From Malacoraja senta (taxonomy: Eukaryota), in assembly GCA_038087875.1 (NCBI GenBank), contig CM075994.1:11038001-11102000 (forward strand): DNA of 64,000 nucleotides, in the 5' to 3' direction. Numbering within the stretch: position 1 is the first letter of the stretch; every line of letters starts with the position of its first letter. A model generated the notes under the pieces. The model was not told the origin of the DNA. It did no database searches and saw only the letters and a program-made list of their open reading frames with translations. The translations under genes and the position numbers were made by a program. Positions 1,476 through 62,178 of the stretch are shown here, in pieces.

Positions 1476-1499
1476 CAGGCAGCATCTCTGGAGAACATG

Positions 1500-15824: not shown

Positions 15825-15996
15825 TTTAGATCCAGTACACAAGTGAGATCAGCACGATACTTTGTTTTTGACAGCACTTTGCAATAATAATTTCATATAA
15901 ATCTGTAATGTTTTCAGATATGTTTGCCATGATGTTCAATATCGTCTGTCAAGCACATCAACGTACATCTGTAAAACCATTCTCTGGCTCACCTAC

Positions 15997-16066
15997 CTGG
16001 GACTCCAATGATTGCAAGAATAGGATAGTAAATACTCTCGGTCTTCAGGAGTGCAGGCTTGTTCAT
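15997..16066 (-). CDS. GPCR copy A, coding exon 1 (MNKPALLKTESIYYPILAIIGVP+G)
   Basis: ATG at 16066 and donor CCAG|GTAGGT at 15997/15996. 70 nt (phase 1) + 947 nt = 1017 nt, giving 338 aa and restoring TM1 as YYPILAIIGVPAN. Conserved in copy B. Confidence 0.9.
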
Positions 16067-17940
16067 AGTTAGTTGGAAGATGCCTTTCTAGTCAGTTCAA
16101 TAGGCTCACGGATCTCCCGATTTCAAAGTTACCTCGTACTTATACTTTACAGAAACCTCAAGGGTGGAATGAACACGCTATGAGATTGGTATTATTCAAT
16201 CACGATCACGTTAATTAGGTTGTTTGTTTCATGCCCTTCATCACTGTTAAAATGGTAGTCTGTAGAGACATGTTTCTGCTGTTGAAATCGTCAATACATC
16301 AAACATCGGTTATCAGCTTAAATATTTTGGTAAACGCTTTAATGCGGTTTCTTTCGAATTTTCTCCATTAGCTGCACCAATAAATTGCAATATGCACCCT
16401 CTCTTATGTTTTACAAGTATCATGTGCAATTAAAATCTGAGGAGATATCTATGATTATGCGAACAATCAAATTTACCGAGACTATGAATGAGTCTGAAGA
16501 TGTGACAGAAATATTGCACAACACATAACAAAAAAGTGGCTGTTAAGGCAATAGACAATAGGTGCACGAGTAGGCCATTCGACCCTTCGATCCAGCAACG
16601 CCATTTAATGTGATCATGGCTGATCATCCACAATCAGTACCCCGTTCCTGCCTTCTCCCCATATCCCCTAACTCCGCTATCTTTAAGAACCCTATCTAGC
16701 TCTCTGTTGAAAGTATCCAGAAAACCGGCTTCCACAGACTCACAACACTCTGTGTGAAATAATTGTTTCCTTATCTCCATTCTAAACTGCTTACCCCTTA
16801 TTCTTAAACAGTGCCCCCTGGTTCTGGAGTCCCCCAACATCGGGAATATGTTTCCTGCCTCTAGCGTGTCCAAACCCTTAATAATCTTATATGTTTCAAT
16901 AAGATCCCCTCTCACCCTTCTAAATTCCAGAATATACAAGCCCAGCCGTTCCATTCTCTTAGCATATGACAGTCCCACCACCCCGGGAATTAATCATGTG
17001 AACTGATTACTTACTGCGTGCTTACTTTCATTGACTGATGAACAAGGACCCCCGGATCCCGTTGTACTTCCAGTTTTCACAATTTGACACCATTTAGAGA
17101 ATAATCTGCCTTCCTATTTTGCTACCAAAGAAGGATAATTTATTTATCCAAATTAAACTGCATCTGCCATGCCATCTGCCCACTCAACCAACCTGTCCAA
17201 GTCACCCTCCATTCTCATAGCATCCTCCTCACAGCTGCCACCCAGCTTTGTGTCATGTGCAAATTTGCTAATGTTACCTGTAATCCATTCATCTGAATTA
17301 ATAATATCTGTCATTATACTAAAAGTCTCATCTTGACCATTTCCTCTCTAAGTAGTTAATTGATTTTTAGAAAAAACGCTACCCTATATCGCTATGATTT
17401 TTGCCATCTTACTCACAGTCCTCCTCCGCTGCAGCAGCCCCAAGGATTTTTCCGATCGCTGAAAAATAAAAGAATATGAATGTTTAAAAAATCGTGAGAT
17501 TAGCTGATTGGTCCTCTAACCATGGTGAAGGCAACGCCTCTTCCGGGGGGGCGCGTGTATTTAGCCCCGGATGCCGGACGTGAGTCACTCACTCTGGAAA
17601 ATTGTGAGGGAGAGTCCCCAACTGTGATTCTAAGCTGTGATTCAACTGAACTGAGAGTCTGCAATGTATTGGCAATAAATAATTTGTTAGCCCAAAGTGA
17701 AAATGCAATGAGTTGTTTGGCCTGCCCTGTGTTTGAAACTGCAATGGAAATGGAAATTAAATGAAACTGCAATGAGTAGTTTAGCCAGCCCTGTGCTTGA
17801 AACTTCAATGGAAATGGAAATGAAATGAAAATGCAATGACTTGTTTGACCTGCCCTGTGCTTTTGCTTTTGCTTTGCTTGGCCTGAAATGAAAGCAAATG
17901 GATTGTATTGTTGACTGGCCCCGCCTTCCCTGAGCTTTTT

Positions 17941-18800
17941 CGGAATTCCGGAAGTGGCGGCGCTGTCGTACAGCAGCGGCTCGCCTGCAGTCCGTCTGTT
18001 TTTACTTTTTTTGTTGTTTTCTTTTGTCCTGTTTCAGTTAAATTTTAGTTTATTGGGTTGTGTATGTGTGGGGTGGGGGGGTGAAACATGACTTTTGTCT
18101 CTTCCTTCGGGGGAATGCAACTTTTTCTTGTCGTGTTCCCCTTCTCTGCCTCCGTCTGCGCCGAGGCCAAAATGGCGGAGCTGCCGGCCTCCAACTCCAA
18201 CTGCGACCGACCGACCTCGAGGCTCCGGAGGCAGAGCCAGGACTTACCAGCGCGAGGCTGGCCAACTTCGGGGCTGCGGTGGCGTTCCGGCGGTGGCGAC
18301 CGAGGACACTGGTGGCGACCTGAATCCGGAGGCTCGGCCGCGGGCCCAGTGGACGACATCGTCGGGAGCGCGCAGGTCACAGGTTGGTGACCTGTTTTTC
18401 TGGGGCTCCCGCAACTACAGCTGCGTCCGCTGGACTGGAGGGCGGCAGCTTCGGCAGCTTCGACCACCCCGGGCCGCGGAGTTTGAGCCGGCCCGTCGCG
18501 GAGCACGGATTCGGCCGCTGGACTGGCTTACCGTCGCCCGGCGGGGTCACAGCATCAGAAGCCTGGATCGCCTCAGCGCAGAGGGAGAAGAAAGCGGGAA
18601 GAGACAGAGACTTTAAGACTTTTGCCTCCATCACAGTGAGGAGGTGTCTGGTGAACTCACTGTGGTGGATGTTAATTTGTGTTTATTGTGTGTTTTGTCA
18701 TTTATTATTATATGTATGACTGCAGGCAACGAAATTTCGTTCAGACCGAAAGGTCTGAATGACAAATAAAGGAATCTCTAATCTCTCTAATCTCTAATCT
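17941..18800 (+). mobile_element. GC-rich non-coding SINE-like retroelement with Rex-type 3' tail, nested in the Helitron (copy A only)
   Basis: Absent at the equivalent B site (~62805). Ends in hairpin TTCAGACC-GAAA-GGTCTGAA, AATAAA and a (CTCTAAT)n tail. A second, 5'-truncated copy lies at 40355..40655. Confidence 0.8.
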
Positions 18801-20160
18801 CTTTTGCCTTTGCTTTGCTTGGCCTGAAATGAAAGCAAATTGATTGCATTGTTGGCTGGCCCCGTCTGCCCTGTGCTTTTGGTTTGCTTTGCCTTTGCTT
18901 TGCTTGACCTTAAATGAAAGCAAAATGATTGTATTGTTGACTGGCCCCGCCTGCCCTGTGCTTTTTCCTTTGCTTTGCTTGACCTTAAATGAAAGCAAAT
19001 GGACTGTATTGTTGGCCCCGCCTGCCCCGTGCTTGGCTTAGCTTTACTTGACTTGACTTGACTTGAAATGGATTGACCTGACTTGACTTGACATGACTTG
19101 AAATCGATTTACTTGACTTGACTTGACTTGACTTGACTTGACTTGACTTGAAATAGATTGACCTGACTTGACTTGACTTGACTTGACTTTAAATCGATTG
19201 ACTTAACTTGACTTGACGATTTGCTTTGCTTGACCTGAAATGATAGCAAATGGATTGTATTGTTGGTTGCCCCCGCCTGCGCTGTGCTTTTGCTTTTGCT
19301 TTGCCTTTGATTTGCTTGTCCTGAAATGAGAGCAAATGAATTGCATTGTTGGCTGGCCCCGCCTGCCCTCTGCTTTTGCTTTTGCTTTGCCTTTGCTTTG
19401 CTTGACCTGAAATGAAAGCAAATGGATTTTATTGTTGTCCCCGCCTGCCCTGTGTTTGGCTTGGCTTTACCTGACTTGACCTGGCTTGACTTGAATTGCC
19501 TTGGATGACTTGGATTGACTCGGATTGCCTTGGATTGACTTGGATTGACTTGGATTGACTTGACTTGACTTGACTTGAATTGACTTGGATTGACTTGACT
19601 TGGATTGACTTGGAGTGACGTGGAGTGACTAGGAGAGAATTGGAGTGACTTGGAGTGAACTGGATTCACTTTGATTGACGTGGATTGTCATGGATTGACT
19701 TGGATTGACTTGAAATGGATTGACTTGACTTGATTTGAAATGGCTGGACGACTTGACTTGACTTGACTTGACCTGAAATGGATTGACTTGACTTGAAATG
19801 GATTGACTTGACTTGACTTTACTTGAAATGGATTGTCTTGACTTGAAATGGATTGACTTTGTTGGCAAATGGATTGTGTTGTTGGCCCCGCTTGCGATGT
19901 GCTTGGCTTTACTTGACTTGACTTGGCTTGGCTTGGATTGCCTTGGATTGCCTTGGATTGACTTGGAGTGACTTGGATTGACTTGGATTGACTTGACTTG
20001 AAATGGATTGACTTGACTTGACTGGACTTGATGTGAAATGAATTGACATGACTTGACTTGAAATGGATTGACTTGACTTGACTTGAAATGGATTGTTGGC
20101 ACTGCACTCACTGTGCTTGACTTGACTTGACTTTACTTGATTTGACTTGACTTGACTTGT
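18801..20160. repeat. Compound satellite: ~70-90-bp minisatellite units with (TTGAC)n and (TTGGATTGAC)n arrays
   Basis: Direct inspection. Source of the KSSQV/VNPSQ pseudo-ORFs. Paralogue at ~62720..63440. Confidence 0.95.
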
Positions 20161-21182: not shown

Positions 21183-24100
21183 AATCAATTCGGCCCACAA
21201 TGTCCATACTAGCCCTCTGGAAACCAGTCCCTTCGGCCCACAACACTCATGCTAGCGCTCCAGAAAGACCACCTCCCCAATTGGCCACCAATATTGGAAT
21301 TGGTGGAGAGGTGGAATATTGCGTTTGGGGACCATCCCCCCGTGTGTACCTGGGACCCAAAGGATCCCACTTAGTCTAGTTTATTGTAAATAGCTGCGGT
21401 CCCAGCACAGACCCTTGCGGTACCCCACTAGTCACCGCCTGTCATTCTCAAAGGGACCCGTTAATCCCTACACTTTGTTTCCTGCCTGCCAACCAATTTT
21501 CTATCCATGTCAGTTCTTTACCCCAATACCATGTGCCCTAATGTTGTCCTCTAATCTCCTATGAGGGACCTTATCAAATGCTTTCTGAAAGTCCAAGTAC
21601 ACTACATCCACTGGCTTTCTCTTGTCCATTTTCCAAGTTACATCCTCAAAAAATTCCATAAATTTAGTCAACTATGATTTCCCCTTCATAAATCCATGCT
21701 GACTCGGACCGATCCTGCTACTGCTATCCAAGGGTGCCGCTATTTGATCTTTTGCAATTCACTCCAGTATCTTCCGCACCACCGATGTCAGGCTAACTGG
21801 TCTATCATTTCATGTTTTTTCTTTCCCGCTTTTTTTTTTAAAGTGGGATAACATTAGCTACCCTCTAATCCACGTGAACTGATCCTGAATCTATAGAACA
21901 TTGGAAAATTATTACCAATGTATCCACGATTTCCAGCGCCACCTGCTTGAGTACCCTGGGATGCAGACCATCACGCCTTGGGGATTTATCAGTCTTCAGT
22001 CTCATCTATCTACCCAATACCATGTCCTGCCTAATGTGCATTTCATCAGATCCTCCATCACCCTAGATCCTATGGCCACTATTACACCAGGGAGATTGTT
22101 TGTGTCCTCCTTAGTGAAGACGGTTCCATAGTACCTGTTTACCTCGTCTGCCATTTCCTTGTTCCCCATAATAAATTCACCATTTTCAGTCTTCAATTCT
22201 CCAAATTTGGTCTTAACTATTTGTTTCCTCTTCTCATACCTAAAGAAGTTTTTACTATCCTCCTTTATATTCGTAGCTAGCTTATCCGCGTACCTCATAT
22301 TTTCTTCTCGTATTGCCTTTTTAGTTATATTCTGTTGCTCTTTAAAAGTTACCCAATTCTCTGGCTTCCCGCTCACCTATGCTATGTTATAATTCTTCTC
22401 TTTTAATTTATACTGTCCCTGACTTCACTTGTCAGCCACGGCCGCCCTTTACTCCCCTTAGAATCTGACTTTCTCTTTGGAATGAACCTTCTGTACACCT
22501 TCTGTATTATTCCCAGAAATACCTGTCATCTTTGGTCCACTCCCATCCCTACTAGGGTATCTTTCCAGTCAACTTTGGCCAGCTCCTCCCTCATGGCACC
22601 ATAGTCCCCTTTGTTCAACTATAATACTGACACCTCCGATTTACCCTTCTCCCTCTCAAATTGTAGATCAAAACTTGTCATATTTTGCTCACTTCCTCGT
22701 AATGTCTCCATTACCTCGAGTTCACTTATCAAACCCGATTCCTTACACAACACTAAATCGAAGATTGCCTTCTCCCTGGTAGGCTCCAATACAAGCTGCT
22801 CTAATAAACCATCACGGAGGCACTCCTCAAACTCCCTTTCTTGGGGTCCAGTACCAACCTGATTTTCCCAGTCTACTGCATGTTGAAATCTCAAATAACA
22901 ACCGTTGCATTATCTTTATGACATGCCAATTTTAACTCTTGATTCAACTTGCACCCTATATCCAGCTACTGTTTGGGGGCCTGTTGATAACTCCCATTAG
23001 GGTCGTTTTACCCTTACAATTACTCAGATCTATCCATACTGACACATCTCCTGAATCTATGTCACCCCTCGCAAGGAACTGAATTACATTTCTCACCAAC
23101 AGCTACCACACCCACTCTGTGCACCGGTCTGTCTTCGATAAGACGTCTACCCTTGAATGTTCAGTTGAATTTATAATTACAATTTATAAATACTGTAATG
23201 TTCCGTTTATAATTACTGCGATCCAATGCACTCGCACACGTGTGAATCGTTAATTTTGTACCATCGTTAACAAATCGTCATTGTTTTAGTATTTCTGCAT
23301 CGGATTGAATTATGGTTTTTCAAGTGATACCTTGTGAGATAGTGGACCGAATGATGACTTTTGCAATTTCATGTGATTCTCATTCCCGTGCTCTCTTCTC
23401 ACACATCTGCCTGCCTACCTAGTTTCTAACTCAGCACTATTGATGCAGATTGATTCATGCACTCCACCTCTTCTTAAGTCCAATTCCTAGCTCTTTCGTC
23501 TTTCAGACACGAGGGAAGAGGCTGTTGCATTCACATCATGCTACGGAGATCTCAATCTCCTTGTAAGATCCGGCTGACCACGGTGTATTTATCTACAAAC
23601 CTGTAAATGTAGTTGGAGCAAGAACTGGTCACACAGCAGTAAGTGTACAGGGAGAGAGTGAGATGCGGACGACGCGGCTTTTCTGTGCGCCGATGTTGAA
23701 AATGATCGCGGACGATGATTTGTCGCTTACCCTTTCTGATTTTGTGTGCGAGTCAGGGAGTCCGTGGCAGAGGGCGTGATGTCTGCAAGTTACAGGAATA
23801 TGGAGATGGGTTTGGTTAGGATTGTGATCCTGATTGTGGATCTGTAGACAAACAATAGGAGGCCTTCTTCTCCAGATGTTCTGGAGATGACTGTACCGTG
23901 GCGCCATAGAGATGCCGTCCGAAGAATTGTCCGAGAACGGTAGGCAAAATGTAATGTGTCAAGGGTGATTCTGAGGCTGGACTAATGTGCACCATGATCA
24001 CCGGCTCTAGACTCGTTATGATTGTGGATGCCAGAGACACTGCACTCCAGCCACATGATTGACATCTGTGTTATTTCCTCTTTTCCAATATATTGAAGCA

Positions 24101-25406
24101 GAAAGAGAAACATGGGCTTAAATTCTCTCAAGTAATGCTTCTTTTTCAGAAACGCGGAGATCAGTATGTTTGAAGAAGGGTCTCCACCCGAAACGTCACC
24201 CATTCCTTCTCTCCAGAGATGCTGCCTGTCCCGCTGAGTTACTCCAGCATTTTGTGTCTGTCTTCTGTATGTTTTAAGCAACTTGTGAATTTCAAACAAC
24301 TGTACGTTTGCGTTTACAAGCTTTTATCATACGGACCAAAAGCGAATGTTATGATGTTGCTTCTCAGTAAATGCTGCCGGCGTAGCCCTCCAGTTTGTGC
24401 AGCGGGATTAGACGAAACAAACTTCCACCCGATATTCATACCAGAATTGATTCTTAAATGTTCAGTTTGTTATCGGTAGATTGCGGAGAGGTGTAACGCC
24501 TGGGTTTTCCAGGTGGCTGCATTTGTCAGTGAACTTTTCAGGATTATGGTAAAGACATAGCAACATAGAAAATAGGTGCAGGAGGAGGCCATTCGGACGT
24601 TCGATACAGCACCGCCATTCATTGTGATCATGGCTGATCATCCACAATCAGATGAGTGCCTTCTCCCCATAGCCCTTGATTCCGCCAGCTCCACGAGCTC
24701 TATCTTATTCTAAATTCATCCAGTGAATTGGCCTCCACTGCCTTCCGTGGCAGAGAATTTCTCAACTTTCTCGATGCAAAACCTTTTTCACATCTCAGTT
24801 CAAAATGGCCTCACAATATTCTTAGACTGTGGCCCCTGGTTCTGGACTTCCCCAACATTGGGAACATTTTTCCTGCATCTAGCTCGTCCAGTCCTTTTAT
24901 AATTTTATATGTTTCTACAAGATACCCCCTCATCCTTCTAAATTCCAGTCAATACAAGCCCAGTCTTTCCAATCTTTCCACTTATGACAGTCCCGCCACC
25001 CCCGGGAATAACCTTGTGAACCTACGCTCTACTCCTTCAATAGCAAGGATGTCCTTCCTCAAATTAGGAGACCAAATGTGCACACAATACTCCAGATGTG
25101 GTTTCAGTACGGCGCTGTAAAACTGCAGAAGGACCTATACTCAAATCCTCTCATTATGACGGCCAACATGCCATTAGCTTTCTTCGCAGCCTGCGGTAAA
25201 TGCAAGTTTAGTTTCAATGACTGGTGTACAAGGAAACACAGGTCCCGTTGCACTTCCCTTTTTCCTAATCTGACACCATTGATATAATAATCTGCCTCTT
25301 TGTTCTTGCCTCCAAAGTGGATAACCTCACATGTATCTACATTATACTGCATCTGCCATGCATCTGCCCTCTCACTCAACCTGTCCAGGTCACCCTGCAA
25401 CTTCCT

Positions 25407-26080
25407 TTTTTTTTCTTTTTTTTTCTTTTTTTTTTCTTCTTTTTTTTCAAGGCAATCAAAACTTTATTTCAGCGTCAAATACAGTGAATACTGGGAGCAA
25501 TCTTGGAGATTGCTCAACAAACAACGATTCATCTACTTATATATAGAATTTTTCTTTGATGTGTTGTTTATTGTGTAAGGCACTTAAGCATTTTTCCTTC
25601 CTCCGAATAATTTTACAACAATTGAAAACCATGCACCTCCAAAAGAGACAACACAGCTCAATTCCACCTTATTTTATTGTTCTACGATTGTCATTTGTCC
25701 TTTGACAACAGAGAACAGAATCGGACTAAAGTATACTGCAGTAAGTGTCATAAGCACTCTACCTATCCCTTACTGTCTTCTTGAAGCTTTGCAATTTATT
25801 TTTGACGTGTCAGTGAAATTCTTTATTTTGCATACTATACACAAGGTACCACCTATATGGTGCAGGCAAAGTATTCATTACAATCCCCAATGGTTCCTCT
25901 TTGTTGTCGGTGCCCCTACGCCAGAGCTCTCTTTGTTCTAACTCTCGTATCTGAGATCAGCGTGCAAATGGACATGATGAAGGTTCAGTAATATTGGTAT
26001 CCATGGTATCCAGTGGCTCTGACTATACATTCAGATGATCTAGCAATCAATTATATAAGACCTGATTCCATGATGTAATG
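25407..26080 (-). other. Putative L1 3'-transduced flanking sequence with a second poly(A) tail
   Basis: ~630 bp with no match elsewhere in the window, between the L1 tail and a second poly(A) (25407..25447). AATAAA at 25463..25468. TSD ACCCTGCAACTTCCT (25392..25406) / ACCTTGCAACTTCCT (29050..29064). Confidence 0.8.
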
Positions 26081-29049
26081 TTTTTTTGTTGTTGTTTTTA
26101 ATATTTTTTTATTGGAGATACGTACACAACCTAGTTACATCATTACAGTCTTACATTTTTAAATTGATAATATTGTCAATTATTATTACATTGTCTCCAA
26201 TACCTTTTGCCTTTTAAAAAAAAAAACTAAATAGAACTAAAGAGAAAGATGAAGTAAAGAAAGAAAAGAAAGAGAAGAAAAACAAAAAATAAATAAATAA
26301 ATAAAGAAAAAAGAAAAAAGATAGTTAAAGAAGAATGGAAAAATTTATTAAAATAGAAAACTTCATTCGAGATATATTCGTACATTTCTAAATATAGCAT
26401 TTCATCCATTCTTTAGCCCGGGTGCTAGTCAGGTTCCTGTGCTGAACTGTTCTGACCCTTTAAGTAATCAATAAAAGGAGACCATGTTCCAACTAATAAT
26501 TCCTGTTTGTCCAACAGGGAGAATCTGATTCTTTCCACGTTTAATGTCTCCGTCATTTCTATAATCCACATTTTGATTGTGGGGGTCGTAGGGCCTTTCC
26601 AAAATTTTAGAATTAATTTTTTTCCTGTTATTAAACTATAATCAATAAAGTTTCTTTGTGTTGTTCTAAATGTTTGATTTAATTCTAATATTCCAAGTAT
26701 TATTAATTTTGGATCTGGGTCCAATTGTGTGCTGGTTACTTTAGATATTATACTGAAAATATTTACCCAGAATGTTTTAATTTTTATACAGTTTGCAAAC
26801 ATATGAGATAAGGTAGCTTCTAAATGTTGACATTTATCACATATAGGTGAGATATGTTGAAAATTTTTATGTAGTTTTGTTTTTGAATAATGTAACCTAT
26901 GTATTACTTTAAATTGTATTAGAGAATGTCTGGCGTTTAATGAACATTGATGTATGTGTTGCAAACTTTCTTCCCAAGTATCTTTGGTTATTATTTGATT
27001 TAATTCTTTTTCCCATGTTTGTCTGTGTAAGTCCGTCGATGGAATGTCACTGTCTAATAAGATATTATATATATAAGATATTAATTTTTCTGTATTAGGA
27101 TGTTTGTTCCAACATTCATCAAGAATTTCTGAATTTCTAATTCGAAAATTTTGAGTATTCGATTTTACATAATCTCTAAATTGAAGATATCTGAAATAAT
27201 CATTTCCTCGAAGTCCATAAGTCTGTTGCAACTCCTGAAATGTCAGAAAAGTGCCTTCCTTGTAAAGTTGTCCCATATTTTTAATTCCATAATTCTTCCA
27301 TTGTGTAAAACCCCCGTCCAACCATGAAGGCTTAAACAAAGGGTTATTCACAATTGGAAGAAAAAGTGATAAATTATCTAATTTTAATGTCTTTTTTAAT
27401 TGTTTCCAAATTCGTATAGCACTAAATATTATAGGGTTTTCCCTATAAATTTTTTTGTTTAATTTAGACGTAGCAAATAATATCGAACCGATATCAAAAG
27501 GTAAACAATCTTCCTTTTCCATTTTTAACCAGTCTGGTTGATGATCTATTTCTTCCAACCAGAAATTCATATTTTTAATATTAACTGCCCAGAAATAAAA
27601 CAAAAAGTTGGGTAAAACCAAGCCTCCATTTATTTTTGATTTACACAAATGTCTTTTGTTTATCCTATGATTCTTATAATCCCAGATAAAATCATTAACA
27701 ATAGAGTCCAGTTTAAAAAAAAAGTTTTTTGCCAGATATATCGGAATTGTCTGAAAAAGGTATAATATTTGCGGTAAAAAAATCATTTTTATGGCATTAA
27801 TTTTGCCAACCATTGAGATAGGAAGTGTTTTCCAGTATTTAATATTCTTATGTAGTTTATTCAGTAATGGTGGAAAATTTGCTTTAAATAATGATGTATA
27901 TATCTTAGTTACATAAATACCTAGATATTTAAATTTTTCCTTTACTATTTTAAATGGAAATTGTTGTATTATCTGTTTGTTATGTTCCCTTATTGGCATA
28001 ATTGCACTTTTATTCCAATTTATTCTGTATCCTGAAAGTGAACCAAATTGGGTTATTAGCTTTAATAAGTTTGGAATACTAATTTCTGGTTTTGCAATGT
28101 AAATTAATACATCATCTGCGTATAGAGAAATTTTATTCACTGTGTCCTTTGTGTTATATCCGTGTATTTCCGGATGCCCCCTGACTCTTTCTGCAAGTGG
28201 CTCAATAGCAAGCGCAAATAATAATGGAGATAACGGGCATCCTTGTCTACAACCTCTAGATAGGCTAAATTTAGATGACAACCTTTGGTTTGTAAATATT
28301 CTAGCCGTGGGATTTGTATATAACAGTTTTATCCATGTACAGAATTTCTCCCCTAGCTGCATATTTTCCATCACCGAAAATAAATAAGACCATTCGACCT
28401 GATCAAATGCTTTTTCAGCGTCAAGTGAGATTATTGCTAGATCTTCATTAATAATTCTCTTGGAATATATAATATTAAATAATCTTCTTAGATTATAATA
28501 TGAGTACCGTTTCAGAATAAAGCCTGTTTGGTCAGGGTGTATTAATTTATTCATCACTGTACTTAATCTATGCGCTAGTATTTTAGTTAATATTTTCTGA
28601 TCTGTATTTAAAAGTGCAATTGCTCTATATGATCCCGGGTCTTCCGGATCTTTATCAGCTTTAGGAATAAGTGTTATTATAGATTCATTTAAAGTGTCTG
28701 GAAGTTTCTGTTGAGTATAGATATACTCATACAGTCTTTGTAAACGTGGCCAAAGCAAATCATAATTTTTTAAATAAAATTCAGAGCCTAAACCATCTGG
28801 TCCTACTGCTTTACCATTTTTTAAAGAGCCAATAGACTCCTCAATATCTTTTATGGTAATCTCCCTTTCTAATAATTCTCTATCGTTTGAATCTAAACAT
28901 TTTAAATTACATTTTAGTAAAAAATCTGCTATTCCTTCTGATTGTCCTTCGGTTTTAGTTGAATAAAGGTTATGATAGTATTGGAGAAATCTATCATTTT
29001 TGTCCTTGGGCATTTTTAATAATTCTCCTGTCTCTGTTCTAATTTTATG
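26081..29049 (-). mobile_element. 5'-truncated L1 (ORF2 RT plus C-terminal CCHC region open to the stop at 26425; 3' UTR; A-rich tail)
   Basis: KAVGPDG, YRAIALLN, LDAEKAFD, RQGCPLSPLLF, LYADDV and CDKC..HMFANC. AATAAA at 26108..26113 (minus) followed by an A-rich tail at 26081..26107. Confidence 0.95.
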
Positions 29050-31709
29050 ACCTTGCAACTTCCTAGCACCCTCTTCGCATTTCACACTGCCACCTAGCTT
29101 TGTGTCATCTGCAAATTTGCTGATGTTACTTTTAATTCCATAATCCAATTCATTAATGTACATTGTAAATAGCTGTGGCCCCAGCAACGAGCCTTGCGGC
29201 ACTCCTCTCGCACTGTCTGCCATTCTGACAGGGACCCGTTAATTCCTACTCTTTGTTTCCTGCCTGCCAACCAATTCTCAATCCATGGCTTACCCTACCC
29301 TCAATACCAAGTGCTCCAATTTTGCCCACTATTCTCCTGTGTAGGACCTTATCAAATGCGTTTTGAAAGTCCAGATACACTGCATTCACTGGCTCTCCTT
29401 CATCCATTTTACTTGTCACATCTTCAAAAAATTCCGGAAGATTAGTCAAGCAGGATTTCCCCTTCATATATCCATGCTGACTTCGACCAACCCTATTACT
29501 ATCATCCTAATGCGCCGTTATTACTTTTTAAATAATTGACTCCAGCTTCACCCCCAACCACCGATGTCAGGCTAACTGGTCTATAATTCCCCGTTTTCTC
29601 TCTCGCTCCTTTCTTGAAAATGGTGATAATTTTAGCAACCCTCCATCAACAGGAACAGTTCCTGAATCAAAAGAAAATGGGGAAACGATCACCAATGCGT
29701 CAACGATTTCTGGAGCCACCTACTTGAGTACCGTGGGATGCCCAGACCATCAGGCCCTGGGCATTTTACAGCCTTCAGTCTCATCAGTCTACCCAATATT
29801 ATTTCTCGTCTAATGCACATTTATTTATGTTCCTCTGTCTTCCTAGATCCTCTGTCATCTAGTACATCTGGGAGATTGTTGGTGTCTTCCTTATTGAAGA
29901 CAGAACCAAAGTCCCTGTTCAACTCTTCTGCCATTTCCTTGTTCCCCATAATAATTTCACCTGTTTCTGTCTTCAAGGGACCCACATTTGTCTGTACTAA
30001 TCTTTTTCGCTTAACACACCTAAATACGCTTTTTACTATCCTTCTTTATATTATTGGCAAACCTAACTTCGTACTTCATCTTTTCACCCCGTATTGCCCT
30101 TTTAGTTACCTTCTGATATCCTTTGAAAGTTTCCAAATCCTCTGGCTTTCCTCTACTCTTTGCGATATTATACTTCTTTTCTTTGAGTTTTCTACCGTCC
30201 CTAACTTCCCTTGTCAGCCACGGTTGCCTATTACTCCCCATTAGAATCTTTCTTCCTCTTTGGAATGAAATGATCCTGCATCTTCTGGATTATGCCCAGA
30301 AATACCTGCCATTGCTGTTCCATCGTCATTCCTGCTAGGATCCTTTTCAAGCCGACCTTGGTCAGTTCCTCTCTCATGCCTTCATAGTCCCATTTGTTCA
30401 AATACAACACTGACAATTCTGATTTAACCTTTTCCCTCTCGAATTGCAGATACAACTTATCATATTAGGGTCACTACCCGCGAGCGATTCCTTTACCTTG
30501 AGTTCCCTTATTAAATCTGGCTCATTAGACAACACTAAATCCAGAATTGCCTTCTCTCAGATAGGCTCCAAAACAAGCTGCTCTAAGAACCCATCTCGGA
30601 GGCACTCTACAAACTCCCTTTCTTGGGGTCCAGACTCAACCTGATATTCCCAGTCTGCATATTGATATCTCCCATAACCAAAGTGGCATTACCTTTGTCA
30701 CATGACATTTTTAACTCCTGCTGCAACTTGTACCCTATACCCCGGCTACTGCGTGGGGGCCTGTAAATAGCTCCCATTAGTGTCTTCTTACCTTTACAAT
30801 TCCTCATTTCCAGTCCCTATGTCGTCCCTCGCAAGGGTCTACTTTTCATCCCTCACCAACAGAGCTACCCCACCTCCTCTGCCCACCCGCCTGTCCTTTC
30901 TGAAGGACGTATAACCCTGAATACTCAGTTCACAACCCTAGTCCTCCTGCAGCCATGTATCTGTAATCCCCACAATGTCATATATACCAATCTCTAACTG
31001 AGCCTCGTTCATCCACTTTATTTCTTATACATCGCGTATTCATATATAATGCTTTTAAACCAGAAAACTGTTAATCAGTCTGCAGTCTTATAGGGATTGA
31101 ATAGTCAAGTTTCTCGTCTATATTTCGGGTGACATTACTGATGAGGAATATCGTGATACACACTTCCCTAGAAACATCTATAAGATTACCATGCTTCCTC
31201 AGCTAATGATATCTCTCGGCATTCATGGCCTTAATGTCGATTCATTAATTTGTATCACAACAATCACCTGCATTGTCGCCAAAAAATGGCCACACAATAT
31301 CACGTATCCATGATGACTGTGAAGGATACTCAAATAAAAATCCTGGCAGGAATTCTCTTTCCACCTTTATATGGAACGTGATTATTTTGGTTTCTGAAGG
31401 GCAGCCAACTGCAATTCCCAGCAACGGCACAGTAAGATTTAATTTTCACGTTATCTGAATTATTTATTTTGCTTGCAACAATTGTCATTGCCGATAGTAC
31501 TCCGCACGCACGCAATATGATAAATTCGAAAGTAACAGCGCAGTAAGCGGATTATGGTGTACTGTCTATTTTTGTGTTCAATGTTTCGAGGACAAATGTT
31601 TCAGAAAACACAGACACCGGAGATTAAGATTGAGTTTGGAGATTGACGGATCGAGATCCTTCATCCGGACTGAGATTGCACGAGTGCAGATCAAGTGAAA
31701 TCAGTCTAA

Positions 31710-31870
31710 GCATAGAAACATAGACAATATATACAGGAGTAGGCCATTAAGCCCTTTGAGCCAACACCGCCATTCAATACAAATATGGCTGATCATCCAG
31801 AATCAGTACCCCGTTCCTGCTTTCCCCTCCATATCCCTTGATTCAGTTAGCCCTAAGAGCTATATCTAAA
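31710..31870 (-). mobile_element. CR1-like 3' end fragment
   Basis: CATAGAAACATAG tail and GGCCATT..GCACCGCCATTCAAT-like motif shared with 16550 and 24560. Confidence 0.75.
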
Positions 31871-33948
31871 TGGTGAGACGGGATATGAGATTGCGAAATT
31901 CCGATTTATCTATTTCTTAAAACCATTCAATTATTTTCAAAAATGTAGTTGTTCCTACAGTGAATGTTGTTCTTTTTGCAATAATAATGTTATATCTAAC
32001 TGATTACTGATATCCGACCAATTTCGGGTCAACCAGCATCTGGGGATGGAGTTGACGTTTCGGGTAGAGACTCTTCTTCAGATAGTTTGAAGAATGATCC
32101 CGACCCGAAATGTCAATATGTCTGCGTCCTTTAGCGTTTTTCTAATTATCCATTAGTTGCCCGGTCAAATTACATTTACTTTTAAAAAAAACTTTTAAGA
32201 AGATTATCTCCGTCGTCCTTGTTCTATGCGCGTAAGAGGCGTTTTCTGAATTACAATCCGTATTTTAATAAACCAAACAAATTGGATCGCCGACTCTGTG
32301 CGAATATCGTTGCACTTCACATTTCGGGAGTGATGTAAACATTTATATCCAAATTCCAAATATATCCATAATGTCTTTTAATAGGCAGGCTAACAGGAAG
32401 GTCAAGGATTTGAATCTAGAACGGCAAATATTTTTTTAAGCGGGATCCTGTGCGGATCCTTCAGTCGGACAAAATCTATTTTCTGCTTAAATTTAGCAAA
32501 CACCCCAGTCACCTACTGAAGTCTAATAATATCTCATGGAAACCTTAATGCTGCTATGAGCATTGCAAAAGAAAGGAATTATGAGTGGTTTCTTTTTAAT
32601 GTAATATTTTGTCGTTATTCTTATGGATAACTGTCGTTAACACATTTTGCAATCAACTTAAAACGAGAAGCAATACATTATGTTTTAGTTATTTCCCCAC
32701 AAAGCATTCTTGGCTAAGACATTCACTAATTTCTTGTGAACTCTTATTCCCTTCTTTAGTTGAACAACTGTTGCTCTTCATTCGTTTTTGCTAATTGAGA
32801 TACGGAGGTTTAAACATACATCTGAAATCTATAATGATTCAGATATGTTGAAACTGTGCTACGTTGGTAAATAACAGACTGATTGAGATGCTTGGAATAT
32901 TGTACCAGTGTTATTGTAGTTGTGAATATGTGCAATGTATTCGTATTGAAATCCTAAATTCTGCATCTGTTGAGATGTACAATGGTGAGTTCGGCTCAGG
33001 AAACTATTAGGACCAGGGCAAACCTACACGCCTCCCGATGCAGAGCAACACAATCTAAACAATAACAACGTGTTAATTGGAAATCTGAAATAGTGACAGA
33101 AAATGGTGCAATAGAAGTAGCTAATATTTCGTGTCCGATACCCTTGGCCCAGTTCCCCAGAACTGCGGAAAAAAAGAAGGGATATTTGTCTCTGTAGTAG
33201 AGTTGAAACGTGATGGCAATGAGTGTAATAAAATAGCCTTATCTGTTAATGTGAAGTAATGCAACCATCAGGATCAGTTATGGCAGAGATCAAACTGGAT
33301 TAAGTGAACAAGTACAAGTACCTGGTCCTTCACAGAAGCAACAATTGTGCGTTACCTTTACGCATAATCTGCTAATTTTACCGAAATAACTTGGAACTCT
33401 GTCTATGATGAGAAGCATCTGGGCATCGCGTTCTTCGCAGTGTTGCCATCACCGATGGTCGGTGCGCTCAGGATGGGTCGACTGACGTGCTTCTGTGTTG
33501 TATGTGCCCATGGCCCCCGTGACACATAATAATTCCAATCTCTCAATTACCTTTACGGGAAATCCTGTTCCCGACATCAATTGCCTCCCGAACACAGTTA
33601 AAATTCAACGATCTTCCACTGCCAGTATCTTTTGAAGTCAAGAAAATAGAAAAACCTCTAAATATACATGTCCCGAAACCATCTTGATGTTCAGGGAACG
33701 TGACTTAGAAAAAAAAGGGTTACTTCGCTCCATCTTCCTCACACAGCGACATTTCAGAAGCGCATAATAAACAAACAACACTCGGCTGATGGTAACGAGA
33801 AAAATTAAACCTTGCATCAAACAGATCCCTATCAATCCCAACCATCCCTTTCGACATCCCCGCAGAGACAACGTACTCCTCCTATTATCATCTTGTTTCA
33901 TGCATCTTGGCTGCCTCTTGACGAATTCGGTCAGCCAGATTGATAATT

Positions 33949-34608
33949 CGTCGCGGAGCTGCGAGCTCTCGCCGGGGGTCGCAGGAGAGAAGCGCTCCGA
34001 TCGCTGGCCCGCGGCAGCCTGAAGCCGCGGTCTGCAGAGCTCCAGCCGGCGCGGCGTCCTGGGCCTGGGATCCCTTGTTGGGGACCCGGGAGGAGAGGAG
34101 CTCCGACCGCCGGCCCGCGGCCAACTTCTACCGCGGGCGCGGCGTGGACTTACCATCAGGAGCGAGGTCCCTCGCCGGGGACCCCTGGAGCGGAGCTCCG
34201 ACCGCGGACCATGCGGTCTGCGGTGCTTCCTCATGCGGTGCGGCGTGGACTTTTGATCTTCGACCGCCGGCCTGCGGCCTACACCAACCTGAGGCCGCGG
34301 TCTCCGTTAGCGAAGCACCGATTTAGGACTTACCTGAACATTACATTGTCTACACATATGGACGCCCGCAGCGGCGACTGTGGAGGGATGAGGTCCCGAC
34401 CACGGGGGAAATGGAGGAGGACTGGACAATTTTGTGCCTTCCACCACAGTGATGAATGTTTATGTTATGGATGGATGTGGTGGATGTTTATGTTAACATT
34501 TTATTGTGTTTTTATGTGTTCTTTTTTCATCGTACCGCTGTTGGCAAATTCATTTCACTTGCACTTTATGTGCAAGTGGCGAATAAAACTGATTGTATTG
34601 TATTGTTA
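33949..34608 (+). mobile_element. GC-rich non-coding SINE-like retroelement (5'-truncated) with hairpin, AATAAA and (TTGTA)n tail
   Basis: Core homologous to the reverse complement of 36440..36720. 3' hairpin CACTTGCAC-TTTAT-GTGCAAGTG (34556..34578). Confidence 0.7.
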
Positions 34609-36311: not shown

Positions 36312-37010
36312 GTTATATTATAGCCGTTCCCGCAACTAACCTACAGCAGAGAGGTATTAAGAAAAGTAGAAAAAAACAGAAGGGGAAGGAACAGGAAAAG
36401 GATTTTAGTGCAACATAGAAGATATTATGGGAACGAAGATTTAAAGTCCCCGCCGCGCCGCAGCCAGAAGCACCGCAGACCGCAGGGCCGGCGGTCGGAG
36501 CTCCCCTCCTGGGGCGAGGGTAAGTCCACGCCGGGCCCGCGGTAGATGTTGGCCGCGGGCCGACGGTCAGAGCTTCTTCTCCTCCCGGGTCCCCACGAGG
36601 GATCCCAGGCTCCGCACGCCGAGCTCCGCAGACCGCGACTTCAGGCTGCCGGCTGCCGCGGGCCAGCGTAACGGAGCGCTCACCTCCGGCGAGCCCTGGT
36701 GAGGGCTCGCCCGGTCCACGCCGAGAGTCCGCGCTGCGCCCGCCGCTGAAGCCCCGGGCGCGTCTCCGGGAAAGGCCGCCCAATCCTCGATGTTAGGCCA
36801 CGGGGGAGGCGAGCTGGAAAAAGTCGCCTCTCCGTGGAGGAGGCGACCGAAACGGTTTCCCTGCTTACCACCTCACCCCCACACCACTCCCCACACAAGA
36901 CACACAAAGAAACATTAAAAACATACATTAAAACACACTTAAAATAAGAAACAAAAGTTGAAAAGACTACCAAGCTGCTGACAGGGTTGCCGGCTTGCAG
37001 CGCCCCCACC
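36312..37010 (-). mobile_element. GC-rich non-coding retroelement related to 33949..34608
   Basis: Shared core (GGAGCTCCGACCGC..GCGGTCTGCGGTGCTTC). Its 5' part resembles the start of 17941 (GG(C/G)GGCGCTG then a T-rich tract). Confidence 0.65.
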
Positions 37011-37454
37011 GATAAAGTTTATCATGTCGATAAAGTCAACGAAGGTAGGGAATAGTCCCACATACACCTATTTGTTTTGTGTCATAAAAGTGTATTTTGC
37101 TGCGCTCAAAACGAGATGGACGTTATTCCCTAATGAGCAGTGTCGACGTTAAATGGGGAGATTTACTGGATGCGATTAATTTCGTCAAGCATTTTATTTC
37201 AAATGCTAACCATTCAGCTTAATTGCCCTGAATACGGAAGCTATCCTTTTGGCACTGATTTGTAGTTCCAGTTTGACGAAACATAGATATAATATACAAT
37301 GTAATATTACTGTTTGACACAGATCTGCAAAAATTACTGCCAGAAATGCAAAAGGTTTTTGAATTATTGGGGAATCGATTGCAGGATAAAAAAAATACAA
37401 CAAACTATTTTTGGTGTCAAAATCACAACTGTCATTTTATCACGATCAAATAAA

Positions 37455-38572
37455 AGGAGTGATCAATATTAATCAATATTTTAAATATTTTCAAATCCGT
37501 GACTATTTGAAAAAATATACACAAGAATATCAAAATTTGTCTCCAGACCTATTAGACGAAGCAATGAATATAAAGGCGGAATCAACTAATTTAATATCAT
37601 ACTTGTATAATATCATCCTAAATATAGAAATGCCATCATCCGATAGAATTAGAAGAGATTGGGAACAAGAACTAGCTATAAAAATCTCGAAAGAGAGTTG
37701 GGATAAACACTTGCTATATGTGCACAAATGCTCGATCAATGTAAGACATATTCTAATCCAATTTAAAACTTTACATAGACTATATTACTCAAAAACTACA
37801 AGAAGTAACTTTTTTCCAAATGTCTCCCCCATCTGTGATATATGTCTATCCCAAGAAGTAACTATAGCACATTCCATTCTTTTTTGTATAAAAATCCAAA
37901 CATTTTGGAATTAAATCTTTGAAATGTTAAAAAAATTATTTAAAATAAAACTGAACCCGAACGCAGAATTTTTTATTTTTGGAACAATGGAAGCCAGCTT
38001 TGATCTGACTTCGTTCCAAAAGAGCTTCCTTAATTACGGCTTAATAATGGAAAAAAAGACATACTTAAATTCTGGAAAAACGCTCCCACACCAACGATAA
38101 ACATGTGGATTTCAAATATGTCCGAAATGTTACACCTGGAAGACATGAGATTCCTCCTAGCAGGCAAATCAGACCATTTCCAAAAGATTTGGTCTCCATT
38201 TATCGACTTATTACAAGCATAGGGTGCAACATAACTTTGAAAATAAATGGTTTCAGGATCTGGTGAGGGGTGTGTAAAGATACGAAGTAGGTACATCCCT
38301 TTTGTCTTATGTTACTTTCTTATATCTTCTGTTCTCTATTTCTCTCTTTCTTTTTCTTTGGTTTTCTTTTTAACTCTTTCTCGTGTTTTACGTTTCCACG
38401 GGTTTCTCCTGATCACTCTTTCACGCACTTACTATCTTATCTAACTCTCTATTTTTCTTATTTTTTAAGTTTAAAACAAGAAGTGGTACAGGGAATGTAT
38501 TATGTTATTTTTTGGCTTATATCACTGTAATGTACATTACTTCTAATAAATAAAATATTTAAAAAAAAGAGA
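37455..38572 (+). mobile_element. 5'-truncated L1 (ORF2 C-terminus, 3' UTR, poly(A)), related to the L1 at 49738..55782
   Basis: NQYFKYFQIRDYLKKYT..RRDWEQELAIKISKESW..CDICLSQ. AATAAA and A-tail at ~38545..38570. Possible TSD ATCAAATAAA (37445..37454 / 38573..38582). Confidence 0.9.
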
Positions 38573-39308
38573 ATCAAATAAATTTCTCCATGGCGAAATT
38601 TAAGGGGTTTTTTTCAAATACGGCCACCGTTATCTGGTAATATCAGCGACGGCGGACATCAATGCTGTGATAACCATGTAACCTTACATTCACTGAGCAC
38701 ATTTCTCACACTTATTTCTCGATTATACTTGCATAATTCAAAGGCCTCCATAACGATTTGTTGTACAGCAATTGTTTGGTTTCTGTTAAGAAAACATACC
38801 TGGTAGTTGTTACTGTATTATAACAAAGTGAGAACATACCAGGATAGTTTAAGCATAAAAATAATCTGGTAATAAATATAAACGATAGTATAATATTTTC
38901 TGAAACCCGCAGCTTTAACGTCTGAAATTAATCTGCAGCTATATCACAACGTGACCTGTGATCGAAATTCTTAATGCGTACCGACCACTGTCCTTATCAA
39001 TCTAATCATTCTCACAGTTGAATCACGCCAGCACAGTTATTGTTGCTCCAGAGGAAATTTGAAAGATAACGAAAAATCCCTAATAGCGTTGGTTACTCTA
39101 ATATCCATTTCGTGCATTTCGTGTATGCCCCATTTAGTGCATAAATTATGGATAATAGGCAAGAGATAGAAACCGTATCCTGATTATTATTCATTCCATA
39201 GATTGAATTAAAAAACTGTGGATAAATGAGCAATGGAAATAATGCAACATGTGGAAGAAAGACAATTTACAAGATACGTTTTAATGCAATTCCCTTTATT
39301 CTTTGCAG

Positions 39309-40202
39309 CTAATATATTGACAATCTCCATCCTGTCCACCGGAAAGTGTGGGCTCTCCATATGGATCACCCGGTATCTAGTATGGATGGCGGCAGCTAAC
39401 CTATCGCATCTGATATTTGGTCCAATACTTTTTGAGATTAATGATGCGTTTTTCCACGTTCAGTCCTAGATTACACTCCAATCTGCCGTCTCAATATGAC
39501 CTTGATTTATATTGTTATTGATTGTTCCGATTGTGTCGTTTACCTTTGATCGATTTGTTTCTATTTGTGGTCAGTCGTTAAAAACTAAGTACTGCACTGA
39601 AAAAAATCAACAACGGTTATAACGATCGTTTGTTTATTATGCATTGTCGAAAATATGCCGGTTTTCTTCTTACTTGAACCACGTGAAGTAATTGACAATG
39701 TGCCCCGATACTGCACTGCAAAATCAAGCTTCTATAATTTACCTATTTGGGCTGCATTCTTATAGTTAGAGACCATCTTAACACTATTTCTACCATTTGT
39801 GTTGATCTTCCTGTTCAACGCCTTAACAATAAGTCATATTATACGGGCGAACAGAATCAGAAACAAATTACGGGGAAACGAAAGTGAGAAGTGCCGGATG
39901 GATTAAGAAATTGAGAACCGACGGAAATCGATCATTTTACTACTCGCGATATCTGGTCGTTTCCTTCTATTGTGGACGGTAAATTTTGCTTGCTTTGATG
40001 CTCTACATTTTACCGATAATCAACTGATGAAATCTGATTACAGAGATCATTCGCCGTTGCAGAAGAAACTGGATTCCAGTTAAGAGTTTTAAGCACTTGT
40101 CCAAACACGTTCATTTATGCTGCGTCCCAACGAAACTTCAGAGATGAAATGAAGAAAATGATTAAACGGCCTCTTGTTTTACTTTCTAAATTATTGAAGT
40201 GA
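39309..40202 (+). pseudogene. GPR139-like GPCR paralogue, exon 2, frameshifted pseudogene
   Basis: Acceptor CTTTGCAG|CT AAT at the same phase-1 site. ANILTISILSTGKCGLS, FDRFVSIC, ENRRKSIILLLAISG and NTFIYAASQRNFRDE. Frameshifts (~39455, ~39530) and in-frame stops (~39763, ~39904). Exon 1 not found. Confidence 0.9.
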
Positions 40203-43961: not shown

Positions 43962-44195
43962 GCTTCTCCCCCGCCGCGGACACTCGCCTCTCACCCCCCC
44001 CCCCCCCCCGCCGCGGACACTCGCCTCTCCCCCCCCCCCCCCCCGCGGACACTCGCCTCTCCCCCTCACGCGGACCCTCGCCTCTCCTTCCGCCCCCGCC
44101 GCGGAGCCTCGCCTCTCCCCCCCCTCGCTGCGGACCCTCGCCTCTCCACCCCTGTGCCGCGGACCCTCGCCTCTCCCTCCCCTCCGCCGCCGCGG
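43962..44195. repeat. GC-rich ~25-30-bp minisatellite (CCGCGGACCCTCGCCTCTCCCCC)n; also at 1..75
   Basis: Direct inspection. Confidence 0.9.
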
Positions 44196-44284
44196 GCCTT
44201 CCAACGTTGCTTGGGAGGGAGAAAGGAGAAAGCAAATATGCGTCAAGGCGATAGCCTAATCGTTAAAGTTAAAAGATTGCCTAA

Positions 44285-61236: not shown

Positions 61237-62178
61237 GCAATAGACAATAGGTGCATGAGTAGGCCATTCGTCCCTTCGAGCCAGCAACGCCATTTAATGT
61301 GATCATGGCTGATCATCCACAATCAGTACCCCGTTCCTGCCTTCTCCCCATATCCCCTAACTCCGCTATCTTTAAGAACCCTATCTAGCTCTCTGTTGAA
61401 AGTATCCAGAAAACCGGCTTCCACACACTCACAACTCTCCGTGTGAAATAATTGTTTCCTTATCTCCGTTCTAAACTGCTTACCCCTTATTCTTAAACAG
61501 TGCCCCCCTGGTTCTGGAGTCCCCCAACATCGGGAATATGTTTCCTGCCTCTAGCGTGTCCAAACCCTTAATAATCTTATATGTTTCAATAAGATCCCCT
61601 CTCACCCGTCTAAATTCCAGAATATACAAGCCCAGCCGTTCCATTCTCTTAGCATATGACAGTCCCACCATCCCGGGAATTAATCCTGTGAACCTACGCT
61701 ACACTCCCTCAATAGCAAGATTGTCGTTCCTCAAATTTGGAGATCAAAACATCACACAATACTCAGGTGTGATCTCACTAGGGGCCTGTACAACTGCAGA
61801 AGGACCTATCTGCTCCTATACTCGACTCCTCTTGTATGAAGGCCAACATGCCATTCGCATTCTTCACTGCCTGCTGCACCTGCGTGCTTACTTTCATTGA
61901 CTGATGAACAAGGACCTCGGGATCCCGTTGTACTTCCAGTTTTCACAATATGACATCATTTAGAGAATAATCTGCCTTCCTATTTTGCTACCAATGAAGG
62001 ATAATGTATTTATCCAAATTAAACTGCATCTGCGATGCCATCTGCCCACTCAACCAACCTGTCCAAGTCACCCTCCATTCTCATAGCATCCTCCTCACAG
62101 TTCACACTGCCACCCAGCTTTGTGTCATGTGCAAATTTGCTAATGTTACCTGTAATCCATTCATCTGAATTAATAATA
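61237..62178 (-). mobile_element. CR1 3' part, copy B
   Basis: Paralogue of 16547..17306. Retains ~185 bp (61695..61880) that A lacks. Confidence 0.88.

Follow-up and report, generated by a model that had tools for sequence, protein, structure and literature searches.

A 5'-truncated L1 with two A tails and a 633-bp segment inside a decayed CR1 of Malacoraja senta: a probable partnered 3' transduction

The capture of flanking DNA by L1 3' transduction is well known in mammals; for the partnered form of LINE-1 3' transduction in primates, Pickeral et al. (2000) is reportedly the work cited. Target-primed reverse transcription is established knowledge, and A-rich tails are targets of the L1 endonuclease. 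In the available sections of a study of three primates (the TIGER study, PMC4862182), a partnered event is laid out as target-site duplication (TSD), 5'-truncated L1, internal A tract, distal sequence, AATAAA, new poly(A) and TSD; the transduced stretches span 51-1,570 bp, and 3' transductions occur in 2.5-8.8% of non-reference L1 insertions. The accessible text of PMC6425141 gives a figure of ~20% for new human germline insertions. The locus described here has the primate order of parts, and its 633 bp falls within the primate range. It differs in its cartilaginous-fish host, in a fish-type L1 with a T-rich UTR, in a source that is only inferred and in a target other than TT/AAAA. LINE-1 chimeras formed by template switching or RNA ligation, as described in part of a preprint (bioRxiv 10.1101/2025.02.02.635956), likewise hold two RNAs in one orientation within one TSD, but there the foreign part is 5' and the L1 3', whereas here the L1 is 5' and its tail intact. 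Processed pseudogenes and gene retrocopies share with this locus low-copy sequence, a poly(A) signal, a tail and L1 machinery; unlike them, the present segment has no coding match (0 Pfam families in 6/6 frames) and no separate TSD, and is fused to an L1 tail. Searching titles and the opening lines of abstracts, in an incomplete library with few subscription papers and with the primed term unsearchable, returned no report of L1 3' transduction in fish or cartilaginous fish, and the word "transduction" occurs 0 times in PMC5381603 and PMC2881922.

The window analysed is the whole 64,000-nucleotide stretch of DNA, and all features below lie on its minus strand. A single TSD encloses the L1, its A-rich tail (tail 1), the 633-bp segment and a second poly(A) tail (tail 2). 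The two copies of this repeat, 29064..29050 on the 5' side and 25406..25392 on the 3' side, agree at 14/15 positions, and the mismatch can be placed in the 5' copy because the base in the 3' copy is that of both CR1 paralogs in the window. Among other 15-mers of the 64 kb, the minus strand holds none at 12/15 and the plus strand reaches at best 12/15, in two places. Outside the repeat lies a decayed CR1. Its part 5' of the insertion (29065..30930, RT region) matches 21383-23166 (76.6%, 1,800 columns) and 62081-62160; on the 3' side (24556..25391), 24565-25399 matches 61240-62077 (73.9% over 863 columns), and 24556-24705 also matches 31711-31867. With the block removed, the empty site forms one open CR1 RT frame across the junction and aligns to 62160..61888 (78.5%, 279 columns) and 17288..17022 (77.3%). 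Over its joined length the host CR1 carries 47-66 stops per frame. The insertion target, CT/AGGAAG, is purine-rich and differs from the canonical TT/AAAA, which counts against a transduction.

The L1 piece comprises 874 stop-free codons of ORF2 (29049..26428) and a stop codon, ending at 26425. It matches RVT_1 (Pfam, E 2e-39) and, weakly, zf-RVT (E 0.0024), and begins near residue 396-401 of full-length ORF2 homologs (n=4); it keeps the RT and the C-terminal zinc-knuckle region, and the endonuclease is missing. The closest ORF2 proteins that span most of the piece match it at 48-53%, all named matches being from ray-finned fishes. The match to the longer L1 of the window, which has an endonuclease domain and ORF1, is 52.6%. 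The window contains no other L1 of the same family, another L1 being 67.6% alike. The 3' UTR (26424..26114) is T-rich (48% T over 26427..26114) and has an AATAAA of its own inside it, at 26349; PMC5381506, in the part consulted, describes UTRs rich in T for the L1s of zebrafish. It is followed by the L1's own AATAAA (26113..26108), a motif similar to that in which the two other L1s of the window finish, with G+T of just 30% behind it, and by tail 1 (26107..26081; 27 nt, 78% A, CAA units). An L1-type RT, a zinc knuckle, a T-rich UTR, AATAAA and an A tail together identify the element, as judged from its sequence, as a non-LTR retrotransposon of the L1 clade. The inserted copy itself is dead, as promoter, ORF1 and endonuclease are all absent.

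Between the two A tails lies the segment (26080..25448; 633 bp, 37% GC). Its 5' part (26080..25910, 171 bp) is low-copy by contig depth, while its 3' part (25909..25448, 462 bp) is made of one or more decayed copies of older repeats, as judged from depth and diverged pieces, and carries five sense-strand AATAAA. The last of these (25468..25463), the poly(A) signal apparently used, stands 15 nt before tail 2 (25447..25407; 41 nt, 90% A, four G interruptions). The other four, at 25827, 25800, 25678 and 25572, were passed over, and this counts against a transduction; behind the one at 25678, G+T reaches 75%. The first-pass annotation had described the truncated ORF2, UTR, signal and A-rich tail, the second signal and tail, the direct repeat around the whole block and the collinear CR1 RT left by its removal, and had cautioned that several AATAAA were apparently read through. 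All of this holds at the coordinates given, the read-through sites being the four in the segment and that at 26349 in the L1 UTR. One point of the description can be refined, in that the segment is not unique throughout: in the pieces listed, its 3' ~460 bp is ~82-87% alike to a repeat family of greater age. Being only this similar and present in all three organisms compared, these family matches are old. The segment encodes nothing recognisable. No second copy was found in the window (best other match 21 nt, E 0.033), no Rfam family matched 24000-30000 at E up to 1, and a 24-base exact pattern had 0 matches among metagenome contigs.

We compared 966 bases with contigs from public sequencing runs; the comparison passed over both A tails, and the 966 bases include neither the L1 body nor the 5' junction nor the empty site. 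Four of 24 runs were used: X1 and X2 from organism A, X3 from organism B and X4 from organism C. Runs X5-X23, with small word shares, and X24 were left out, and organisms D-H are thus unused. Over the L1 3' end (26141-26206) the summed contig depth was 91,184-138,019 in X1 and 206,946-331,051 in X2. Over the 5' part of the segment it was 18.2 in X1 (one contig with 0 differences) and 137-218 in X2, giving ratios of 5,010-7,583 and 1,384-2,214, respectively. The perfect match in X1 is not independent, since X1 is possibly the window's own sample. The 3' part of the segment showed depth peaks and diverged pieces in 4/4 runs. The first-pass annotation had named presence of the segment at the 3' end of most family copies, as an ordinary UTR, as a finding that would speak against its reading. 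More broadly, the 633 bp might be the usual 3' UTR of the whole L1 family or of some large subfamily, or else an independent SINE-like element of recent origin. A multi-copy family is indeed matched by the 3' ~460 bp, but the 5' part lies more than 1,000-fold below the L1 end, the family matches are old, the low-copy part is linked to the repeat part in organism C (see below), and Rfam gave no match up to E 1. A depth ~1,400 to 7,600 times below that of the L1 3' end shows that nearly all 3' ends of the family lack the segment, which is thus no normal 3' UTR, and we regard this whole explanation as scarcely credible.

Homologs of the segment in organisms B and C are ~94-95% alike. In X4, record 32 spans 25779-26074, from which it differs by 14 substitutions and 16 gap letters; it joins the low-copy part to the repeat part and continues 196 letters beyond 26074, and these letters cannot be the end of this L1, because X4 has no depth at 26174-26215. 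In X3, record 23 spans 25452-25802 and shows 21 substitutions as well as 8 gap letters; the run lacks cover at 25943-26074 and 26108-26215, which proves no absence there. Past the 3' end of the segment, X3 record 23 runs on for 479 letters and organism C record 30 for 177, the letters themselves not being shown. No pieces of the CR1 flank are listed for the organism B and C contigs, though pieces so long would be listed. These contigs apparently continue into other sequence at both ends, as expected of ordinary genomic DNA, so that tail 2 and the attachment of the segment to L1 and CR1 appear specific to organism A. Taken with the depth data, the contigs point to the segment being older, pre-existing genomic DNA with a low-copy 5' part and decayed repeats. 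They also bear on a capture at the DNA level, whereby a break in or beside the L1 tail was patched with 633 bp from elsewhere, or gene conversion from an adjoining L1 took place. Repair-mediated duplications do occur in vertebrates, according to the part of PMC2671141 consulted. Here, however, an AATAAA stands exactly 15 nt before the end of the segment, and the 41-nt A tail that follows lies directly against the TSD; this arrangement is the signature of RNA processing, and the homologous contigs run straight through that end for 177 and 479 letters. We consider DNA-level capture very improbable.

A partnered L1 3' transduction is the probable explanation of the insertion. A full-length L1 of the same family would have landed in a short run of A's immediately 5' of the 633-bp stretch elsewhere in the genome, where an active source L1 may lie beside the original of the segment. 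Judging by the anatomy, transcription of the source read through the L1's own AATAAA, behind which no G/T-rich element lies; the RNA was then cut 15 nt beyond the AATAAA at 25468 and polyadenylated. ORF2p would then have nicked the purine-rich site in the old CR1 and started synthesis from the new poly(A). It would have copied the 633-nt flank, then the earlier A tail and the UTR, and finally 2.6 kb of ORF2 before stopping, leaving the 15-bp duplication. The transduction proposed in the first-pass annotation is supported in part, by its one TSD, two tails and non-UTR segment, but template switching and a nested retrocopy, two rivals that it does not name, yield the same anatomy. The unbroken ORF2 also has to be weighed. 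Were the cargo to have diverged by 1-2% since the jump, an unbroken frame would have a simulated probability of 0.28-0.08 with substitutions only and 0.04-0.002 with 10% indels; an unbroken ORF2 beside cargo so diverged is unlikely and counts against the transduction.

Tails 1 and 2 share a 7-A suffix, and this observation is relevant to a history of two successive insertions, in which an L1 with its 15-bp TSD came first and a 5'-truncated retrocopy (633 nt plus poly(A)) later entered its A tail. The duplication made by such a nested retrocopy would be invisible because it would consist of A's. The A-rich L1 tail would be a suitable target for the L1 endonuclease, and retrocopies resemble transductions in having a TSD, poly(A) and unique sequence; they were miscalled as such twice in the portion of PMC4862182 available. 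Against this, a low-copy RNA would have had to strike a ~30-nt target inside a young L1, and 7 A's would make a short duplication when the outer TSD measures 15 bp. At the segment boundaries no further inner direct repeat was found (the best is an 8-mer inside the segment). An independent TSD for the segment had been the other result named at first pass as adverse; only the seven shared A's were found, and an all-A duplication would look alike. We judge two successive insertions distinctly improbable.

A one-step chimera would give the same two tails and single TSD. Here, ORF2p would have primed on a separate host or repeat RNA ending at 25448, copied 633 nt and jumped at four A's to the L1 poly(A), by template switching or RNA joining. 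The segment does resemble an RNA 3' end: five sense AATAAA were seen vs 0.62 expected (at least 5 in 2/5,000 simulations; 0 on the other strand), an excess noticed post hoc. Old retroposon 3' ends within the segment also account for it. Further, the contig of X2 record 16 stops 10 letters past 26074, following four A's that may have served as microhomology, and there is a native-like variant copy. Known human chimeras, in the portion of the preprint available (bioRxiv 10.1101/2025.02.02.635956), have foreign RNA 5' and L1 3', an arrangement tied to cis preference; the order here is reversed. We consider the chimera unlikely. Because of its stop after four A's, X2 record 16 also suggests that at least one copy of the segment may have a different upstream flank; X1 record 8 extends 36 letters beyond 26074, by coordinates 30 letters into tail 1. 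Given record 16 and the native-like variant, the native segment locus may lack the L1 in the X2 individual, a point against the transduction; an empty allele would explain it, and the rival readings would explain it equally well.

Returning to the transduction, the low-copy part stands at 4.4x (X1, n=12) and 4.5x (X2, n=19) the median depth of hand-picked diverged contigs. This excess hints at a second locus or more than one copy, depth being no copy number. X2 record 14 is a variant of the segment with 4 differences in 115 (depth 35.9, the window type having 113.6) and shares its letter at 25909 with organisms B and C. Contig ends were considered too weak a basis for reading off junction letters or exact copy numbers, since graph simplification can drop short paths between repeats. 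The depth hints at several near-identical tag copies in organism A, in which respect the locus would resemble a human L1 transduction family of 14 members (described in the sections of PMC6425141 available). These copies may equally be segmental duplicates, given that the window represents a tandem duplication of ~44 kb. That the insertion belongs to a transduction family of germline L1s in a skate-like fish is a tentative and rather doubtful extension. An intermediate full-length L1 bearing the 633-bp tag and part of tail 2 as an inherited, extended 3' end would have kept transposing, and the original locus would have lost, or never fixed, the founder L1. Such a family would explain the approximately three window-type copy-equivalents plus one older variant in X2, the G-interrupted tail 2, and the presence of an unbroken ORF2 beside a tag already different from its native counterpart. 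A family of this kind would also represent a traceable source lineage in a group for which no such report was found.

The mechanism is a known one, and the locus offers at most a new lineage for it, with non-coding cargo. If the transduction is true, capture of flanks by read-through extends beyond mammalian L1 to fish-type L1 in cartilaginous fishes, which is expected rather than surprising. The segment would then serve as a bar code for one recently active source element in a very large L1 family, and would let one test whether the L1 sources of non-mammals have short lives and remain unfixed. With non-coding cargo and a dead CR1 as the landing site, the event implies no new function, and the insertion is probably harmless.

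A decayed GPCR in one frame of the segment was considered and rejected, as 0 Pfam families were detected in 6/6 frames (E up to 1) and neither of two local GPCRs gave a tblastn match. For the GPCR that neighbours the insertion, 111 of the 120 homologs listed are named, and every one of these comes from a shark, ray or skate, as befits a cartilaginous-fish host; a skate protein at 71% ranks highest among them.

The CR1 reverse transcriptase region was found to be broken after position 29050 (minus strand) by 2,622 bases of L1 ORF2, comprising 874 stop-free codons with an RVT_1 domain (Pfam, E 2e-39). On the same strand, ORF2 is followed by a T-rich UTR, by an AATAAA at 26113 and by an A-rich tail of 27 nt (26107..26081). 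Directly 3' of this tail lies a 633-bp segment (25448..26080), in which a distal AATAAA at 25468 precedes by 15 nt a second tail of 41 nt (25447..25407; 90% A); the second copy of a 15-bp direct repeat then follows. The repeat copies around the block are identical at 14 of 15 positions, with 12 of 15 the highest score anywhere else in the 64 kb. Upon removal of the block and one repeat in silico, the CR1 frame was open across the joint, which is collinear with two paralogs (77-78%). The first-pass annotation had proposed L1-mediated 3' transduction at 25392..29064, and the layout it described, two A tails and one TSD around an L1 with extra DNA inside a CR1, is present there. Compared with full-length ORF2 homologs, the L1 piece begins at approximately residue 400 and thus lacks the promoter, ORF1 and endonuclease. 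The homologs of this piece that carry names come from ray-finned fishes. For the neighbouring GPCR, 111 of the 120 matches listed carry names, all of sharks, rays or skates, and by this sequence similarity the host is placed among the cartilaginous fishes.

No second copy of the segment was present in the window, and it matched neither Pfam (six frames) nor Rfam. Among the 24 public runs listed, two of organism A contained 0.78 and 0.41 of the sampled words. The comparison with 25250-26215, at 85% likeness, drew on four runs: X1 and X2 from organism A, X3 from organism B and X4 from organism C. Assembled contigs were used throughout, and both A tails were skipped. Summed contig depth at the L1 3' end was 91,184-138,019 in X1 and 206,946-331,051 in X2; over the 5' part of the segment it was 18.2 and about 150, giving ratios of 1,384-7,583 (depth is not a copy number). 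With depth over this 5' part three orders below the L1 3' end, an ordinary family UTR is ruled out, and the wider reading of the segment as an ordinary UTR or SINE retains next to no probability. The 3' ~460 bp (25448..25909) shows depth peaks and has pieces about 82-87% alike in organisms A, B and C, and therefore holds decayed older repeats. In the consensus of the loose ends of 48 contigs at 25811, one of these terminates in an AATAAA of its own, an end that may resemble those of Rex1/Babar type. Positions 25790-25850 (minus strand) are the 3' end, now decayed, of a multi-copy retroposon, and X2 contigs depart from the window sequence at 25811 (48 contigs) and 25848 (49). Sense AATAAA occurs five times in the segment against 0.62 expected, probably because of the older repeats therein.

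Within organism A, X1 contigs 8 and 5 are identical to the window over 298 and 270 bases, respectively, and continue for 36 and 33 letters into the skipped tails, which is what two real junctions would give; this perfect match is not independent, since X1 may be the source sample. A bubble in X2 at 25879-25993 comprises the window type (depth 113.6) and a variant with four differences (depth 35.9), which by depth arithmetic carries at 25909 the letter of organisms B and C. X2 contig 16 stops four A's upstream of the segment, which suggests a native-like copy with a different upstream flank; such an end would equally result if an L1-linked copy had a shorter A run or if the graph had been pruned there. 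Total depth on the low-copy part was 4.4x (X1) and 4.5x (X2) the median of 12 and 19 hand-picked diverged contigs, corresponding to two loci on a haploid-level background and to about four on a diploid-level one. Any extra copies could be a source, sister transductions or segmental duplicates.

For the homologs in organisms B and C, minus-strand pieces were read in the direction of their own contig because the alternative puts three contig ends exactly at the skipped-tail edge. X4 contig 32 (488 nt) links the low-copy part (25910..26080) to the repeat part; it spans 25779-26074 and differs there by 14 substitutions and 16 gap letters. It has 196 more letters upstream of its segment match and, as X4 is without depth at 26174-26215, these are not this L1 end. 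X3 contig 23 (822 nt) matches 25452-25802 apart from 21 substitutions and a single 8-base gap, and continues 479 letters past the segment; X4 contig 30 continues 177. No CR1-flank piece is listed for either, and pieces of 479 or 177 letters would sit among the longest listed. Being confined to the repeat part, X3 contig 23 could be a close paralog. On the simplest reading of these alignments, the 633 bp would be part of an old locus common to related species, and their junction with L1, poly(A) and CR1 would belong to organism A only. Within 25531-25544, an 8-base gap is seen in both organism B (25537) and organism C (25531), so the window copy may have a derived 8-base gain.

The best-supported account, in which we place considerable confidence, is that transcription of a source L1 read through into flanking DNA, that the RNA would have been cleaved 15 nt past the AATAAA at 25468 and polyadenylated, and that target-primed insertion with 5' truncation would have followed. 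The insertion has a single TSD and two tails, its tag is rare at the 3' ends of the family, and older homologs of the tag have different flanks; a putative source L1 and its read-through RNA would lie behind these features. Of six defining features of partnered L1 3' transduction, four are found here, and the other two, a distal original that continues without the poly(A) and a source L1 directly upstream of it, are putative. The insertion behaves like, and probably belongs to, this class. Against transduction, no source L1 was seen in the contigs of the four runs (A tails skipped), four internal AATAAA were bypassed, one of them followed by a stretch of 75% G+T, and the target site is non-canonical. 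A template-switch chimera is unlikely, the human cases described in a preprint (bioRxiv 10.1101/2025.02.02.635956) showing the reverse order. We regard a retrocopy nested in the L1 A tail, with an all-A duplication, as decidedly unlikely, and repair capture of the segment as very improbable. Returning to transduction, the chance of an unbroken ORF2 after 1-2% neutral change is 0.28-0.08 without indels and 0.04-0.002 with them; any real divergence of the tag therefore predates the last jump, and must be an allelic difference or reflect passage through an active intermediate.

Reported rates of 3' transduction, in 2.5-8.8% of non-reference L1 insertions of three primates (PMC4862182) and about 20% of those newly arisen in the human germline (PMC6425141), give a prior that favours it here. 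One comparative study connects transduction with the weak signal of mammals and describes L1 ends in AATAAA and poly(A) across all the species it compared (PMC5381506); in another, retrocopy numbers outside mammals are related to L1 copy numbers (PMC3136929). PMC5131818 gave nothing further here. As a weak negative, no report of L1 3' transduction in fishes or cartilaginous fishes was found in a literature search of incomplete coverage. The insertion is real and clean, probably a case of an already known kind in a little-studied lineage, with a putative source L1 and non-coding cargo; that it belongs to a transduction family with a traceable founder is a tentative suggestion.

The window also contains a tandem segmental duplication (1-19350 and 44123-63440; period ~44 kb) with long blocks about 92-97% identical. 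The insertion sits in the once-seen part, and a filled or empty paralogous site may therefore adjoin the window, outside it. A cluster of rhodopsin-type GPCRs, of a group annotated 'probable GPR139' in cartilaginous fishes, lies at 6348-7319 (minus), 56455-57426 (minus) and about 39280-40170 (plus); two of the copies are open and 89.8% alike, and the third is broken by stops and frameshifts. Open frames of 159-240 codons at 14066-14788, 14898-15422, 33638-34306 and 36313-36792 (minus) matched nothing in Pfam at E up to 1. At about 49740-55780 (minus), in one duplication unit only, is a near full-length L1 of a different family (ORF1 288 aa; ORF2 frame 1,171 aa, apparently deleted internally). 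It has neither poly(A) nor TSD, and about 28 bases present at the paralogous site (~5650-5675) are missing here, suggesting insertion with target deletion. A third L1, a short 5'-truncated fragment at about 37430-38570 (plus), is 75% alike to it and terminates in AATAAA and a short A run. In both duplication units, at 18803-20160 and 62731-63440, an 86-bp unit recurs in arrays, alongside long repeats of 5 bp (CTTGA type).
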